This document shows positions 4,027 to 10,338 of a stretch of 64,000 nt of DNA, piece by piece. The position numbers were made by a program, and so were the translations under genes. The first letter of the stretch is position 1; every line of letters begins with the position of its first letter. Origin of the DNA: Escherichia phage JLBYU40; sequence record NC_105514.1; one strand, given 5' to 3'. Under the pieces are notes generated by a model, which saw only the letters and a program-made list of their open reading frames with translations, was not told the DNA's origin and searched no databases.

Positions 4027-4124
4027 GGTAAAAACTCCTATTAGTTTAATTTAAGGGATAAGATTAACATAATGTTAATCATTATATTCCCCATATTTCA
4101 GAGGAATATAAAGTTAACACTAAA

Positions 4125-4604: not shown

Positions 4605-4808
4605 TCAAACTATTTTTTGCAGTTTTTTATGATTTTCTTTCAGGTCAATCATAATATTGCGCCAGATCATTTCCAGACCTTGCTGGCGGCCTTTCTTGTA
4701 CTGCTTAAATCGCCATTTTACCGATCTTTGCGCTACTGTCAACAATTTTTTAGTTTCGCTATCCAGTGCCTTGCTAGGTTTACCAGTGATCAATAAAGTT
4801 TGTTTCAT
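4605..4808 (-). CDS. small basic protein flanked by 24-bp inverted repeats
   Basis: 67 aa, K/R-rich; bracketed by near-perfect inverted repeats at 4575-4598 and 4841-4864. Confidence 0.35.
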   Translation of the reverse strand: MKQTLLITGKPSKALDSETKKLLTVAQRSVKWRFKQYKKGRQQGLEMIWRNIMIDLKENHKKLQKIV

Positions 4809-4840
4809 ATCGTCGATTCCTTATATTATATAAGTTTACC

Positions 4841-4864
4841 GCCGATAGGCTTTAAGATGTACCC
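4841..4864. repeat. right arm of 24-bp inverted repeat
   Basis: GCCGATAGGCTTTAAGATGTACCC. Confidence 0.7.
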
Positions 4865-5581
4865 AATTTTTAAAGAGCGTGGCGGTAAACTTCCCGCCGT
4901 GTAGTTCGTCATTGCCGCCCTACGAGGTAAATACTAGCAAATACCAAAAATGGCGCAACCTTATTTTTGTAAAGAAACGTAAAGACACGATTCACCGGAT
5001 GGCGTGCGGCGACCTGGGCGCGGCGCATTAAAATTAAAGGAAACGGGCGCGCGAATACCACAAAACATAGCAGATAGGCAAGTAATTTTTTCATTTATAT
5101 TTGCTTTGCCCTACTTGACAAAATCTAAAAAGCTCAGGGTAGCGATAAACGGGCTATCCCTTTATGATGGGATGCCTGAAAAATTTACCGCGTCAGAAAG
5201 CGTTTTAGGCGGCTTATTTTCGATTTAACAAATATTTAACAAAAGCAAAATTGAAAAATAGTTGAAAAAGGTCTTGACTTTTAAAAATCAAGACTAAACG
5301 AGTTATTTTATAAAATTAATTAATTGACTTTTGTTTGTTGTTGTGTATTAGAAAGATAGCAGACTAATAATTACTAGAATGATAATCATGCTGGTGGATT
5401 GTAACAGCCTGAACCATTAGCAGACTATTAATCACGGAAAATCTCATTAGCCAACTAACTATTTCATGATATATAATATACTTATAAATTAATGAGAAAT
5501 AATAAGTATAATAAATAATAACTACAGTAAATAATAACTATAAGAAATTATCGGCCTAAGTGAGAACCACTATCATTTAAG

Positions 5582-5689
5582 TTATCCACAAGTTTATTAA
5601 CAGCACAAAATGATTTGACACGATAGGCGGCGATATAAAGACTTATCTACAGACTTATCCACAGGTTATCCTACTGTATAAATATACAG
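5582..5689. repeat. left arm of ~110-bp imperfect inverted repeat with DnaA boxes
   Basis: TTATCCACA at 5582-5590 and 5655-5663, TTATCTACA at 5643, palindrome CTGTATAAATATACAG at 5674-5689. Confidence 0.65.
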
Positions 5690-5956
5690 GGTAAATGGGT
5701 AGTATATTATAAGGATGTCGATTTTAAGCGGCCTAAAACGCTTTCTAACGAGCTAAATGCGGTGGGGTAATATTAAAGTAAAGCCTTCACCCGTCGCCCT
5801 GGTGGCTTCGCCGTGTTTTGCTCTTTATTACACCGCTGCGCGGTTATCATAAAAATATGCGCTAGGCAAGGAAAATAAAAAGGTAAAATAATCTTTGCCT
5901 ATGCTAGAAAATTACCTTTATCATTCACTCACCGATTAACGAGGGAGGCTGAACAA

Positions 5957-6967
5957 ATGAGGCTTTATAAACCTGATAATGCCACCGTTTTAAAAGGTGC
6001 ATTGCGCAACCTGCTGGACGGTAGCAAGTCAACCAGCATTAAACATTTTATTAACAAGGTTGAAACTATTCATCAAAACTTTTTTGATGAATATGACGCC
6101 TATGATATGGATAGTTTTCTACCCTTATATAAGCAAGGGGCAACGCTAGTTTTATATAATCGGGATTGCCATATCTTTACAGGCAGGGGAGCGGGACCGG
6201 ATACCGATTTTATTGTTGCGCAGGGCAATACTATTGTTGCGTATCATAGCAATTCAGGCCGTCAATCATTTAATATAAATGCTTTTGAGCTTATTGGGCT
6301 TGATCTTATAAACGGGCTTTCTAGCATTGAGGGATTTTTAGATGTTATCTGGAAGTATTTACCCGCTGGATGGTATAAGCCGGATAATGACGGATCTCAA
6401 TATACCGCTATAATGGCTTTTGATGGCGATGGTAATTTTTTGTTACCTTCGAAATTATACCCTTATGTATATAATGATCTAATAGAAGAGGCTGGTTTTT
6501 CTTTCTGGAAAGATGATGATCAGCCCATTGACAATATAGAAAACCATGCTGTAAATTCTAACACTCAAAGCGTTAACACTCAAACTACTGAAAACAAAGG
6601 AAAAAATACCATGACCAAGATCGCTAATATCGTTGCCGCTAATAAATCCGCCGTTGTAAATGCTGCAAAACTGGAAGCGGGTAAAATTGCACTGACTCAA
6701 ATTACGAAAGTAGCGGCTAAAAAAGCACCGTTCATGATTAAAGGTTATATTGATACACCTATCGGTCGAGTAGTGATTGCCAACCTGCTGAGCGTAGCGG
6801 TTGACCAGTATGCCCCGAACAACCAGAAAGCGAAAGCGGTAGCAGGTGCAGCTATGGAAGCGGCTATGTTAGAAATGGTACAAAGTTTCAATATTGCTGA
6901 AATGATTGATGAAATGGTAAAAGGTATTGATATTTCTACTTTTACTACTAACACTGAAAGCGAGTAA
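5957..6967 (+). CDS. hypothetical pre-early protein (336 aa)
   Basis: RBS GAGGGAGG upstream of ATG; first gene of plus-strand cassette between inverted-repeat arms. Confidence 0.55.
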   Translation: MRLYKPDNATVLKGALRNLLDGSKSTSIKHFINKVETIHQNFFDEYDAYDMDSFLPLYKQGATLVLYNRDCHIFTGRGAGPDTDFIVAQGNTIVAYHSNSGRQSFNINAFELIGLDLINGLSSIEGFLDVIWKYLPAGWYKPDNDGSQYTAIMAFDGDGNFLLPSKLYPYVYNDLIEEAGFSFWKDDDQPIDNIENHAVNSNTQSVNTQTTENKGKNTMTKIANIVAANKSAVVNAAKLEAGKIALTQITKVAAKKAPFMIKGYIDTPIGRVVIANLLSVAVDQYAPNNQKAKAVAGAAMEAAMLEMVQSFNIAEMIDEMVKGIDISTFTTNTESE

Positions 6968-7084
6968 TAAATAATCTAATGTAAAGTTTTGTAAAGGCCG
7001 CCTTTTATGGTGGCCTTTTTTGTTATAATGCCTTTACACCGTTTGAGGACGGTTGAAAATTTCCCAAAAAATTGGAGGCTTAAA

Positions 7085-7315
7085 ATGGTTGCATATTCTT
7101 CTTCTGACGCTCTTTTCACTGGAAAAGGCTGGGTATCAAATCGCTGGATCATTCAAGAAATGGTGCAAGAATACGGCATTGCTAAAACTTACACTACCAT
7201 TCAGGCGCTTTATGATAATGATCAAATCGATCAGCAAACGGCTGGCTTTTTGCTGGATACCCTGAAGGCGGAACATTGCACCAAAAAACAAGCCGCTAAA
7301 ATTATTTTAATGTAA
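7085..7315 (+). CDS. hypothetical protein
   Basis: in-frame ATG at 7085 preceded by RBS TGGAGG; the longer 7007 start lacks an RBS. Confidence 0.45.
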   Translation: MVAYSSSDALFTGKGWVSNRWIIQEMVQEYGIAKTYTTIQALYDNDQIDQQTAGFLLDTLKAEHCTKKQAAKIILM

Positions 7316-7513
7316 TTAATAACGGGGCGTTACTTTCGCCCCACTAACTAGGAGAATGAAAATGGTTATTTTTCGAGCTATTTTAGCGGGTATCTTGGGC
7401 GCTATTTTATCGTTGTTTGCAATAGCTTTCGGTGTTCACGCCGTTATTATCGGCGCGGGGATTGCCATTTTTTCTTATTTGCTGGGCTGCATGACTAGTA
7501 AAGGAGAATAAAA

Positions 7514-7726
7514 ATGATCCGCAACGTTTCTCTTGCTCGTTCGAAAGGCTTTAAGCTGGTGGACGTTAACACGTTCGAGCGTGAAGATTGTAAAATCGAA
7601 TATGTAGCGCGGAATAAAAACGCTTTTCGTGTTACCGAGAAAAAATTCGATAAGCGCGGCAACGTGATAGCTGAAACAGTTAAACATTTTGCCACCTTTT
7701 ACGCTGCGTTTCGTGGGGTACTATGA
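7514..7726 (+). CDS. hypothetical protein
   Basis: 70 aa; RBS AAGGAGA upstream. Confidence 0.45.
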   Translation: MIRNVSLARSKGFKLVDVNTFEREDCKIEYVARNKNAFRVTEKKFDKRGNVIAETVKHFATFYAAFRGVL

Positions 7727-7849
7727 AAAGCGTTATCATTATTATCCTTGCAATGGTTGGCGGTTTTACCGCCACCTTATTTAAAAATGATCCCCTTTTA
7801 CTGGGGATTTTTATGCTTTTATCTGGCTATCTGATTGGGAGGTTATAAA

Positions 7850-8194
7850 ATGGTAATTTATGAAGGCAATCGTTTTGTTGCTAATTGCCGTCCTGCATTG
7901 CTAGCAAATTACTTAAATCAGCTTTCACCAGCTTATAAGGGCGTCATTAATATTTACGAGGGCAAAGCGCATTATAAGATTAATGCGGTCGTTGCCCGTG
8001 AACTAGCGTTTCAATTTTTGACCTTTGCATCTTGTGACGTTCAGGTCATGGGTGAGGCGTTAATTGCAGAAAATGATGATGATTTTATTAACATTTTTCG
8101 CAAGGTATGCACCGAGCGCCTGATAATGAAAGGCGCATATATTCAATCCACTGCGGATAGTATTGAAACAGCGTTTCGAAAGGTGGCGCAATGA
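7850..8194 (+). CDS. hypothetical protein
   Basis: ATG at 7850 preceded by RBS GGGAGG; internal start of the 7835 ORF. Confidence 0.45.
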   Translation: MVIYEGNRFVANCRPALLANYLNQLSPAYKGVINIYEGKAHYKINAVVARELAFQFLTFASCDVQVMGEALIAENDDDFINIFRKVCTERLIMKGAYIQSTADSIETAFRKVAQ

Positions 8195-8367
8195 AAAAGT
8201 TTTTAATAGCTGGCATGTTTCCCTTGTTGCCTTATGTAATTTGCTGGGCTTTATATGCTCATGGTGCTAGTGTTCCCGGTGTGGTGTCATTTGGTGTATC
8301 GGCGGGCTTTCTAGCTGGACTATTGGCAAGCGTATATTTACGCAAATAATTAATAACGGGGGTTATT

Positions 8368-8562
8368 ATGAGCAATAAAATTATTGTAACCAAAACTACC
8401 ACAATGGTTGACGTTTTTTATGTGCCCGATACGCCGGAAAACCGGCAAGCGGTCGAGCGTGGCGAGTATGATAAAGTGATTTATGATCACGATGGTTATT
8501 ATCAGCATTTGGTCGATTCCTACGGGGAGGAGGAGAAGATCACGCATCAATTACCTGACTGA
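8368..8562 (+). CDS. hypothetical protein
   Basis: 64 aa; RBS-like GGGGG upstream; last gene of the cassette. Confidence 0.45.
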   Translation: MSNKIIVTKTTTMVDVFYVPDTPENRQAVERGEYDKVIYDHDGYYQHLVDSYGEEEKITHQLPD

Positions 8563-8705
8563 TAACAAGCGGGGAGCAGATCCCCGTTTTTCACGCCTCC
8601 AGATAAATACCCCTCTGTTTTAGTATCCCCACCAAAATTAAACGCGTTAGAATGCGATTCAGGACGGTTTAGCGGTATATTAGAATTATTCACTACATAG
8701 GAATA

Positions 8706-8813
8706 CTGTATAAATATACAGTAGGATAAGCTGTGGATAAGTCTGTTAATAATGCCTCAAAATGGCTAGGATTTTGTCAAGTCAAATCGTGCTGTTGATA
8801 AGTCTGTGGATAA
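8706..8813. repeat. right arm of ~110-bp imperfect inverted repeat with DnaA boxes
   Basis: same 16-bp palindrome at 8706-8721; TGTGGATAA at 8732-8740 and 8805-8813; shared AACAGCAC...GATTTGAC blocks. Confidence 0.65.
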
Positions 8814-8829
8814 CTTAAATAGCAGTGTT

Positions 8830-8876
8830 TCTCACTTCCATTTTTAAATGCGAGTCATTATCATTTGCATTTCACT
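8830..8876. repeat. 47-bp direct repeat, copy 1
   Basis: TCTCACTTCCATTTTTAAATGCGAGTCATTATCATTTGCATTTCACT. Confidence 0.7.
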
Positions 8877-8933
8877 ATCTAACCGATAATCATTCCACTT
8901 TTTAAATGAGAATCATTTCACTTCCTGAATAGT

Positions 8934-8980
8934 TCTCACTTCCATTTTTAAATGCGAATCATTATCATTTGCATTTCACT
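8934..8980. repeat. 47-bp direct repeat, copy 2
   Basis: identical to copy 1 except one base. Confidence 0.7.
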
Positions 8981-9046
8981 TTTTAAATGAGATTGATTCT
9001 CATTATCATTCGCATTCAAGCGGGCAGGGCAATTGCCCTGCGCTTT

Positions 9047-9647
9047 TGTGCAAATCCGACATTGCTCCACTGGTGTTACGTGTGGGCATGTATGTGCGAA
9101 TCCGACAATTTTTGGTAGTGTGCAAATCCGACCCGAAAAATTTTTATAGTGTGCAAATCCGACAATGAATTTTCCCAAAAACTCCAGCAATCCGATGCTG
9201 CGCATCAATCCTGTGGAATTAGCTAGAATATGTGCAAATCCGACATGGGTTTATTTGTGCGAATCCGACAAGATTTTTGTGACTTTGATTGGAGGGTGTG
9301 TGATTGTATGGGTTTGAGGAGAAGATGAGAGAGTGAGAGAAATTTGAGGGAACTGTGAGAGGGGCGCAGGATTGGTGCGGAGCACCTGATTTGCGGGGAT
9401 TTTGGGGAAGAGTTGAGAAGATTTGGGTTAATTTGAGATAGGTGCAGAAAAAGCGAAATTTTATTAGCTAAAGGGGGTAAAATAGCTTGACAAGTGAAAA
9501 TTTCTGTGGCTCAAAAAACACAAGCAATCATGGGCCTTCGGCCCGAAATAATGCTGCTATTTTCAGGAGAGTAAGAGTTCCTAAAAACTTAGGCGTTTGT
9601 GCAAATCCGACCATAAATTTCTAGAAATGCAGTGTGCAAATCCGACA
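9047..9647. repeat. iteron array: 8 co-oriented copies of TGTGCRAATCCGACM
   Basis: copies near 9047, 9093, 9118, 9150, 9230, 9256, 9598, 9633. Confidence 0.7.
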
Positions 9648-9690
9648 GTAATTTCTGGAAATGTGTTTTCAAAAAATGTTTCCTAGAAAT

Positions 9691-9763
9691 AACCGCCCTC
9701 CCTATAACCGCCCTGTATTAAACCGCCTAGTATATGTTCCTAGAAACTTAGGAGAACCGCCCT
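9691..9763. repeat. cluster of four AACCGCC(C/T) repeats with CTAGAAA palindromes
   Basis: AACCGCCCT at 9691, 9706, 9755 and AACCGCCTA at 9721. Confidence 0.6.
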
Positions 9764-10110
9764 AGAAAGAGCGGTATCTCGTGAGAACTCTGGAGTTTCT
9801 AGGAAAGTGTTATGCCATCCTAGCAGATGAGCGGCAACAGGTGTATCATCTTGAACACAGATATTGCCTTTAAATATTATAAGGTAAATTAAAAGTAAAG
9901 TAGCCCCCATTACATGTGTGCTTACTCGTGGGGCGCGTGATTAATTACGTAAGTCCTCGACTGTCATACCCCTGTTGCTCGGTCGCAAAGAGTTAACGAA
10001 GTCTCGTGTAATAATCATCGCCCCTAGAGTTCAAAACAAGAGTTGTTTTTAATCTATGTGATTATTATAACATGTGCCGCAATGAGTTGTCAAGAAGATT
10101 TTGTTAACGT

Positions 10111-10338
10111 TTATACATCCTCTTCGAGATTGGTATTGGGATCGTAAATTTTCTTAGCTCCTGTATTTAATAGGAATCGCTCTGCAAGTTGTGGGTGAAT
10201 ATCAAAGAACTCTGTGCATCCTTCGAATCCCTTTAAATTACAGCGGTATTTCTTAAAGTAGATATGTGCAGCGGCTTCTAGATCTCTAGGATTATGGGTT
10301 TCATAGATTCCCATACACGTATAAATCGTCAAAACCAC
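10111..10338 (-). CDS. hypothetical protein
   Basis: 75 aa ORF. Confidence 0.35.
   Translation of the reverse strand: MVLTIYTCMGIYETHNPRDLEAAAHIYFKKYRCNLKGFEGCTEFFDIHPQLAERFLLNTGAKKIYDPNTNLEEDV

Follow-up and report, generated by a model that had tools for sequence, protein, structure and literature searches.

The left end of the genome of Escherichia phage JLBYU40 (NC_105514.1) carries a pair of inverted repeat arms around a block of pre-early genes, and these arms most likely represent a host-protein binding module linked to two-step DNA transfer. More specifically, we put at roughly 55% the probability that the arms, as the T5-family repeat pair, are landing modules for host DnaA and LexA and that the right one is a partner of the two-step-transfer pause. 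How T5 DNA injection halts once 8% of the genome has entered, and how it later resumes, has been a question for more than 50 years, and the sole recent model of the T5 stop is built on DnaA boxes in precisely these arms. One more phage with the element adds little. A near-perfect LexA operator present family-wide in the module would provide a second host protein candidate that is cheaply testable, and it suggests a composite landing pad for host proteins as opposed to a DnaA-only site.

An inverted repeat encloses the plus-strand pre-early genes

The window, by which we mean the whole stretch of 64,000 nucleotides that was analysed, covers the left end of a T5-like phage genome, and its gene order of dmp-A1-A2, left arm, cassette, right arm and DRE/DRD repeats matches that of T5 (Table 1). 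An ungapped inverted pair of 153 nt (5558-5710 and 8685-8837) is 73% complementary, and gapped local alignment lengthens the arms to 5558-5777 and 8619-8837, where 163 of the 213 aligned columns carry the same letter (76%). The arm pair has an alignment score of 123, far beyond the scores of 500 shuffles (19.6 ± 2.4, maximum 31), and the left arm's best reverse-complement match across the whole window is the right arm. The inverted repeat is real, as the self-alignment called for in a first-pass annotation of this DNA confirmed, and the two imperfect arms described there do exist, at about twice the ~110 bp that they had been given. An Rfam scan of 4800-10000 identified no family close to threshold. 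As also claimed, the arms enclose the only plus-strand genes of the pre-early region: all genes at 5957-8562 are on the plus strand and all other pre-early genes, from dmp through 4909-5094, are on the minus strand, as the T5 annotation has them. The cassette genes match phage protein families (Pfam, PHROGs) and encode a 336-aa DUF7566 protein, a homologue of the T5 abasic-site nicking endonuclease (7514-7726) and six small proteins.

Judged by alignment and location, the arms are the IRC-spacer-IRD and IRD'-spacer-IRC' repeat pair of the T5 family. Neither arm differs in length from its T5 counterpart, to which the left is 79% and the right 93.5% identical. [quoted passage not shown] When coordinates are transferred from T5, the published T5 first-step shear point falls near 8990. 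Since the arms correspond to the published T5 pair, the core finding is already known: Heusterspreute et al. in 1987, Wang et al. in 2005 and a review by Davison in 2015 reportedly described the T5 IRC/IRD repeats. The eight DnaA boxes of the pair have been proposed, as a hypothesis only, to be part of the injection stop signal, and the recruitment or titration of DnaA suggested in the first-pass annotation matches this published hypothesis for the same elements (Davison 2020, bioRxiv 10.1101/866236).

Table 1. Features in and around the repeat pair of JLBYU40, in window coordinates
Feature	Position	Strand	Remarks
AT-rich repeats, 16-bp period, just outside left arm	5497-5551	.	GC 23-28%
Left module, T5 IRC-spacer-IRD equivalent, from outer block AAGTGAGAACCACT to end of LexA-like core	5558-5689	+	aligns with T5 NC_005859 6098-6249
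Left arm outer DnaA-box pair TTATCCACA-AGT-TTATTAACA	5582-5602	+	
Left arm inner DnaA-box pair TTATCTACA-GAC-TTATCCACA	5643-5663	+	
Third, degenerate DnaA box TTATCCTAC	5666-5674		overlaps left LexA-like box
Left LexA-operator-like box TACTGTATAAATATACAGGG	5672-5691	.	3 mismatches to 20-bp consensus; perfect CTGT-N8-ACAG core
Left arm inner extension	5690-5777	+	
41-nt element within left inner extension	5718-5758		also inverted relative to 5183-5223
Variable accessory pre-early cassette	5957-8562	+	
GC-rich hairpin followed by T run	8570-8592	+	past last cassette gene; position of T5's annotated terminator
Right arm inner extension	8619-8705	-	
Right LexA-operator-like box TACTGTATAAATATACAGTA	8704-8723	.	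1 mismatch to 20-bp consensus
Right module, T5 IRD'-spacer-IRC' equivalent	8706-8837	-	93.5% identical to T5 9390-9542
Right arm inner DnaA-box pair TTATTAACA-GAC-TTATCCACA	8732-8752	-	
Right arm outer DnaA-box pair TTATCCACA-GAC-TTATCAACA	8793-8813	-	
Two 67-nt direct repeats (DRE type)	8829-8999	+	begin at outer end of right arm
Eight copies of TGTGCRAATCCGAC (DRD type), rest of iss-type repeat region	9047-9646	+	

Each arm carries paired DnaA boxes and a LexA-like operator

Our search for exact copies of TTATCCACA revealed five in the window against 0.63 expected, and four of these lie inside the arms, on the plus strand at 5582 and 5655 and on the minus strand at 8732 and 8805, in agreement with the two consensus boxes per arm noted earlier. 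Every one of the four has a near-consensus partner box 3 bp away, and the eight DnaA and DnaA-like boxes form four pairs of this spacing, two per arm. A scan of the window for TTATNNACA-N3-TTATNNACA found four matches, in the arms only, where none is expected; the looser consensus TTWTNCACA was not enriched window-wide (10 matches, 8.0 expected). The strong boxes are 73 bp apart in either arm, or about seven helical turns, and the paired sequence blocks of the first-pass annotation, AACAGCAC and GATTTGAC, were found in both arms as well. Reading inward, each module consists of an outer block, a tandem DnaA pair, a spacer that contains a TTGAC block, another tandem DnaA pair and, 10 bp further inward, a near-consensus LexA-like operator. 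Motif identity and spacing argue strongly that the boxes are DnaA boxes.

The 16-mer CTGTATAAATATACAG is identical on the plus strand at 5674-5689 and 8706-8721. Its identity between the arms had been noted correctly, and it had been taken for a palindrome as such; the palindrome is imperfect, its central AA not being self-complementary, and its identity as a LexA operator had gone unrecognised. As judged against the 20-bp Gammaproteobacteria-type consensus TACTGTATATATATACAGTA, the 16-mer is the core of a near-consensus LexA (SOS) operator, one per arm, with a palindromic CTGT-N8-ACAG core, an A/T-rich spacer and 1 and 3 mismatches in the two boxes, while in E. coli K-12 the operators of recA and lexA have 4, 5 and 6. 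The window contains two such boxes against 0.03 expected. A position matrix from 40 distinct contexts found CTGT and ACAG to be almost invariant, with CTGG, CCAG and ACAA as variants.

The module is conserved among T5-like phages

The right arm was found in 536 phage records, and arm identity is 0.929 between right arms, 0.866 between left arms and 0.75 between left and right. Few non-coding stretches besides the arms can still be aligned as DNA with the Sugarlandvirus-like, Serratia, My1 and Vibrio phages. A LexA-like box is also present in T5, the Sugarlandvirus-like phages, Serratia phage Kamaji, My1, Vibrio phage VPT02 and Providencia phage PR1, the last of which has the right module only. 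Six divergent Demerecviridae lineages retain the core of DnaA pair and LexA box, with a fixed distance between the LexA-like box and the inner DnaA pair, and the neighbouring proteins are 33-65% identical or undetectable. We also searched IMG/VR and one genome per GTDB species for the composite (a DnaA box, a gap of 8-12 nt and a LexA box), which occurred in T5-like DNA only; the lone 'bacterial' match in the GTDB scan was a T5-like fragment in a MAG, and no analogous host locus was found in these collections.

Proposed role in two-step DNA transfer

We hypothesize that host DnaA and, as newly proposed here, LexA bind the modules once phage DNA enters. The right module, which is universal, more constrained and ~150 bp inside the mapped end of first-step DNA, would be the cis-acting partner of the pause separating first- and second-step transfer, and the left module would be a diverged second copy, possibly bridged to the right one via bound proteins. 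The LexA operator, which the third, weak DnaA box overlaps, may belong to the functional cis-element, which could tie transfer to the host SOS state. Transfer is not halted by the left module, 3 kb short of the stop, so a module by itself is insufficient, which weighs against this role. The earlier suggestion that the arms form part of a DNA-transfer pause signal is partly supported by the position of the right arm in the accepted iss annotation. With distinctly less than even odds, we extend the proposal to all T5-like phages, in which LexA and DnaA would be putative ligands of the injection-stop modules and act in the pause or the release of transfer or in pre-early regulation.

T5 growth is reportedly independent of host replication genes, which counts against the landing-module view. 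Proteins bound inside the cell would not readily explain the halting of DNA that is still in the tail, the LexA boxes do not lie over an evident strong promoter, and phage proteins such as A2 may be the real ligands; each of these likewise weighs against that view.

The boxes could instead be transcriptional operators or insulators at which LexA and DnaA control weak inward promoters or block read-through. The blocked read-through would be that from one divergent pre-early operon to the other and that into the iss repeats. LexA is usually a promoter repressor, the cassette is readable from either side depending on the genus, and promoter-like sites overlap both LexA boxes, on the plus strand at the left (5683-5710, TATACA-16-TATTAT) and in mirror image on the minus strand at the right (8712-8685, TATACA-16-AATAAT); several genera also have a -10-like TAATAT or TGATAT ~23 nt inside the box. 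However, these promoter-like matches are weak, 9-of-12 where they overlap the LexA-like boxes, and their overall number is at chance level (17 versus 14.8 expected). Further, T5 has the known promoter of its first cassette gene ~185 bp downstream of the box, and the right box sits past the terminator and faces no gene in T5-type genomes. We consider this reading unlikely, if deserving of some weight.

Rather less probable still is that phage proteins (A2, A1 or others) read the conserved boxes and that the likeness to host operators is incidental or mimicry. A2 is a DNA-binding protein needed for second-step transfer, and its single-sequence AlphaFold model (pLDDT 75, pTM 0.40) has two three-helix units that would be compatible with DNA binding. 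A 19-of-20 match to the LexA consensus together with four exact R-type DnaA boxes would be an unlikely accident, however, and the sites stay constant while A2 falls to 50-65% identity or, in the Vibrio phage, becomes undetectable; a protein and a site that co-evolve would be expected to drift together. When this low-confidence model was compared with the PDB by Foldseek, no structural match reached significance, and the only resemblances, all weak, were to three-helix (Myb or homeodomain-like) folds; the model has no LexA-like winged helix. The A2 sequence had no PDB matches. A2 has no Pfam family, and neither A2 nor the cassette proteins contain a LexA-like domain by Pfam or PHROGs. The idea of A2 as a LexA mimic gained no support from the model.

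The cassette is inverted in two lineages

In the Sugarlandvirus-like phages and Pectobacterium phage My1, the same arms enclose the cassette genes in reversed order and on the opposite strand, and the inner flanks of the two arms have changed places. The published accounts that we found describe this cassette as having hardly any DNA homology to T5 and as being transcribed from the opposite strand, and do not call it inverted. From gene order and flank sequence, we conclude that the cassette is inverted, not replaced, in these phages, with breakpoints within the arms, and that the inverted homology of the arms permitted at least one ancient inversion (once or twice). This ability to recombine explains the difference between genera in the strand from which the cassette is read.

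Both orientations, which the first-pass annotation had proposed to look for in related genomes, were not found: a synthetic inverted-junction query matched none of 542 phage records, and the segment is in forward orientation in each of the 26 informative Tequintavirus/Epseptimavirus-like contigs. A recent inversion polymorphism is ruled out by the absence of the junction from these records. Concerted evolution of the arms is ruled out as well, left-right identity being alike within (0.751) and between (0.748) genomes. Given the missing junctions and arms that have not been homogenised, the segment is, as far as the sequence data go, not a programmed switch; of the earlier description as invertible or recombinogenic, only the second term survives, on an evolutionary scale.

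The arms might also serve mainly as homology anchors for cassette exchange or rearrangement between co-infecting T5-like phages, with no protein-binding role of their own. The LexA cores are 1606 to 4340 bp apart around cassettes of mosaic content, all four combinations of AA and TT centres are found in the two boxes, and the inverted cassettes of the two lineages have their breakpoints within the arms. Anchors would need no exact host operator motifs, no 3-bp and 73-bp spacings and no conservation across subfamilies, however, and the PR1 right module without a left partner and the unhomogenised arms also argue against this reading, to which we give little credence. It is more improbable again that a DnaA-dependent origin-like element is formed by each arm and the AT-rich repeats outside it, for instance for duplication of the terminal repeat: clustered R-type boxes do adjoin AT-rich repeats at the outer flank of each arm, but mapping placed the T5 origins near the genome centre, and second-step DNA carries the replication genes (Davison 2020, bioRxiv 10.1101/866236). 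A programmed invertible segment or a transposon with terminal inverted repeats, which inverted repeats around a one-strand gene block could suggest, has almost no chance of being correct, as neither recombinase nor transposase was found among the cassette and flanking proteins (Pfam, PHROGs), the bases flanking the arms beyond 5558 and 8837 differ, unlike a target-site duplication, the inverted junction is missing and the ~75% identical arms are not homogenised.

Comparison with known systems

The JLBYU40 arms, for which the landing-module reading remains our preferred one, have in common with the T5 IRC/IRD pair their location between the A2-side operon and the iss repeats, a 131/132-bp core, tandem DnaA-box pairs 3 bp apart and adjoining DRE and DRD repeats. 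JLBYU40 differs in having all eight boxes, where T5 is described with seven (Davison 2020, bioRxiv 10.1101/866236), and in lacking the HNH endonuclease insertion that T5 has left of the left arm. The LexA operator, the cassette inversion and the evidence against a programmed switch go beyond the published accounts that we found. No mention of a LexA operator was found in accounts of the T5 repeat pair (Davison 2020), and T5 and LexA literature contained nothing relevant by title or abstract, though Wang 2005 or Heusterspreute 1987 may contain an earlier mention.

Inverted repeats around a gene block whose orientation varies between related genomes are reminiscent of the Mu G and P1 C segments and of Salmonella hin, but the JLBYU40 arms are long and just 75% identical, no invertase is present and the orientation is fixed within each genus. 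Tandem R-type TTATCCACA boxes, helical phasing and AT-rich neighbouring DNA are shared with the clusters of oriC, datA, DARS and P1 oriR, whereas the arm pairs are 3 bp apart and their DNA enters before any phage replication gene. Finally, the arm boxes share the CTGT-N8-ACAG core, the A/T-only spacer and the TA flanks with E. coli-type LexA operators, and they match the consensus better than the operators of E. coli recA and lexA do. Unlike the E. coli-type operators, they occur in a virulent phage with no identifiable regulated promoter beneath, and they are duplicated in inverted modules at a fixed distance to DnaA boxes.

Setting and structure of the inverted arms

In a phage record search, 5400-9000 was matched by 529 records at 80-95% identity, from T5-like phages of Escherichia, Salmonella and Klebsiella, with the top matches at ~92% (e.g. 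EC100 and NBSal005). Genes are arranged as in the T5 left terminal repeat, with minus-strand dmp, A1 and A2 followed by a plus-strand block and a long non-coding repeat region. Together, these matches and this gene order identify the region as the pre-early, or first-step-transfer, DNA of a T5-like phage. In T5, the non-coding repeat region on the left is interrupted by an HNH endonuclease gene, which is missing in the window (5095-5557, compared with T5 5411-5929), as is typical of most T5-like phages. The content of the plus-strand cassette varies among relatives via large insertions and deletions, and its 336-aa gene, for example, is absent or truncated in L009, L018 and L038. T5-like first-step-transfer DNA was also present in records labelled Listeria and Campylobacter phages, with mislabelling or contamination the likely cause. 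Further, a 3-kb contig (L084, RZZU01000077.1) from a MAG labelled 'Clostridia bacterium' is a T5-like phage fragment spanning both arms and a shortened cassette, and is probably a binning contaminant.

The first-pass annotation had described ~110-bp inverted arms around the cassette, sharing DnaA boxes and an identical 16-bp palindrome. A repeat finder and gapless alignment both recovered the inverted arms (153 nt, 73% complementary), and gapped local alignment extended them to about twice the annotated length, with 163 of 213 aligned columns identical and a score of 123, far above the 19.6 +/- 2.4 obtained in shuffles. The left arm had no rival reverse-complement match close to the right arm's anywhere in the 64-kb window. 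The DnaA boxes were likewise confirmed: exact TTATCCACA occurs five times in the window (0.63 expected), four of them inside the arms, and every strong box is partnered by a near-consensus box at 3 bp distance. Scanning the window for this paired pattern returned four instances where none was expected, all confined to the arms, and the strong boxes are spaced 73 bp in left and right arm alike. Each arm does carry the 16-mer CTGTATAAATATACAG as an identical plus-strand sequence, but its AA centre is asymmetric, which makes the palindrome imperfect.

Arms, boxes and neighbouring repeats in the window
Feature	Position	Detail
Arms, repeat finder	5558-5710 / 8685-8837	inverted
Arms, gapped alignment	5558-5777 / 8619-8837	inverted
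LexA-like box, left arm	5672-5691	20-mer
LexA-like box, right arm	8704-8723	TACTGTATAAATATACAGTA
41-nt element pair	5183-5223 and 5718-5758	83% complementary; brackets AT-rich region and left arm
Third copy related to 41-nt element	8635-8684	right-arm inner flank
TGTGCRAATCCGAC, eight exact copies	9047-9646	right of right arm; DRD-type repeats of T5 injection stop signal (iss) region
Fur-box-like sequences	120-144, 4068-4086, 8989-9007	
Further Fur-box-like sequences	5378-5393, 8847-8862, 8951-8969	

A related motif, CTAAAACG...TCTAACG, recurs in Vibrio phage arms, and tandem GTCTAAACGTCTAGA repeats, related to the 41-nt element motif, lie right of the module of Providencia phage PR1. The first 9 kb of the window holds a cluster of Fur-box-like sequences (GATAATGATAATCATTATC), in which four 19-mers with three or fewer mismatches compare with 0.03 expected for the window, an expectation that controls only in part for local AT-richness and coding constraint. 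A2 begins 42-60 nt downstream of one of them, another falls within a DRE direct repeat close to the transferred T5 shear point, and dmp of one Sugarlandvirus-like phage contains a copy with one mismatch. This cluster may be relevant because the T5 entry receptor, FhuA, is Fur-regulated.

A LexA-like box in each arm

Compared with the E. coli LexA-box consensus TACTGTATATATATACAGTA, the right-arm box is off at one position and the left-arm box at three; two such matches were found against 0.03 expected. In E. coli K-12 itself, the recA operator has four mismatches and the two lexA operators have five and six. T5 carries the box at 6213 and 9411. We surveyed the arms in 29 informative IMG/VR contigs plus five distant, annotated phages; the strict core was present in the right arm of 27/29 contigs and the left arm of 24/29, with further instances of the box in Sugarlandvirus-like phages, Serratia phage Kamaji, Pectobacterium phage My1, Vibrio phage VPT02 and PR1. 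The gap between the inner strong DnaA box and the LexA-like box is 10 nt in aligned T5-like, Sugarlandvirus-like and Serratia modules and 9 nt in VPT02. Among 40 distinct box contexts CTGT and ACAG are almost invariant (deviants CTGG, CCAG and ACAA). A degenerate third DnaA box, TTATCCTAC, overlaps the first LexA half-site, so that DnaA and LexA might compete there. From sequence, we infer that LexA would bind the arm boxes.

The central two bases are only AA or TT, never AT or TA (same 40 contexts; window and loci L003-L046), and all four left/right combinations are present among genomes, which suggests that short patches were exchanged between the arms, or that a hairpin loop inverted, rather than that mutation proceeded step by step. 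In the right module of VPT02 (L044, 3223-3320) a second LexA-like half-palindrome, ACTGTATATTTATACAT, adjoins the outer DnaA box, and the left-side box of this phage lies outside the DnaA boxes, not inside.

The right arm was found in 536 phage records, mostly at two places per terminal-repeat copy, and both arms were present in all examined phages except PR1, which has the right module alone. Across IMG/VR and one genome per GTDB species, the DnaA-plus-LexA composite was restricted to T5-like DNA. Among 24 distinct close relatives, identity was 0.929 between right arms and 0.866 between left arms, and left-right identity was nearly the same within genomes (0.751) as between them (0.748), indicating that the arms split before these relatives radiated and ruling out homogenisation within genomes. 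The blocks common to both arms are therefore kept by selection acting separately on each. In comparisons with the Sugarlandvirus-like, Serratia, Pectobacterium and Vibrio phages, the arms belong to the little non-coding sequence that can be aligned at the DNA level, and the proteins encoded next to them share 33-65% identity or go undetected. These comparisons show the arms to be a conserved composite of what read as host-type operator sequences in fixed geometry.

Cassette orientation

The cassette had also been proposed to be invertible or recombinogenic. Every Tequintavirus/Epseptimavirus-like contig has it oriented as in the window. Sugarlandvirus-like phages (L040-L042 and VAC51) carry on the minus strand, in reversed gene order, both a full-length homologue of the 336-aa DUF7566 protein (33-36% identity, E ~1e-33) and a fragment of the 119-aa gene, and in My1 the counterparts of DUF7566 and of the last cassette gene are also reversed. 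The right-arm inner flank of the window matches the left-arm inner flank of these phages, and vice versa, while the outer arm parts retain positional identity, which puts the breakpoints within the arms, where recombination between inverted homologous sequences would be expected to leave them. Davison (2020, bioRxiv 10.1101/866236) described this region as sharing hardly any DNA homology with T5 and as read from the other strand; our data show that the cassette region in Sugarlandvirus-like phages and My1 is an inversion. A programmed switch finds no such backing: a synthetic inverted junction reached at least 80% coverage in 0/542 records, and no recombinase is encoded near the cassette. The inversion is rare and evolutionary in scale; it does not act as a switch.

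Possible roles and comparison with T5

The right module lies ~150 bp inside the published first-step DNA shear point; by coordinate transfer, the T5 shear point falls near 8990 and the T5 nick near 9043. DnaA and LexA could load onto the modules during DNA entry, and the resulting complex may have a part in pausing or releasing transfer. Against this, transfer is not stopped by the left copy, intracellular proteins have no obvious way to halt DNA in the tail, and the boxes lack an overlapping strong promoter. Alternatively, the boxes may be transcriptional operators or insulators, or may be recognised by a phage protein such as A2, for which a low-confidence structure model lent LexA-like recognition no support. 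The arms could also be pure homology anchors, a reading to be set beside the breakpoints inside them, or an origin-like element.

The first-pass interpretation of the arms is partly supported, and the inverted DnaA-box element is already known. The arms align with T5 (NC_005859) 6098-6249 and 9390-9542, where 131-bp stretches at 6098-6228 and 9411-9541 fit the published IRC-spacer-IRD (6022-6152) and IRD'-spacer-IRC' (9332-9462), whose coordinates refer to AY587007 and are slightly offset from NC_005859. The observation is a correct rediscovery of a published element. The T5 GenBank record annotates 9140-10149, including the right-arm equivalent, as "injection stop signal". Davison compared 25 T5-like phages, dated the earliest DnaA-box observation to 1987, and hypothesized that injection stops when membrane-bound DnaA holds the boxes. 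LexA or SOS is nowhere mentioned there, and full-text searches combining T5 with LexA returned nothing relevant, judged by title or abstract; within the literature accessible to us (without Wang 2005, Heusterspreute 1987 and Davison 2015), the LexA-like box in T5-family arms is likely new. The LexA operator and cassette inversion are modest additions to a known element, the former offering a cheap and specific way into a long-standing question. The arms in the window have exactly the arrangement that Davison described for T5-like phages: four pairs of DnaA or DnaA-like boxes (eight in all) with 3 bp between the members of a pair, a spacer that stays constant, and two copies whose separation varies.
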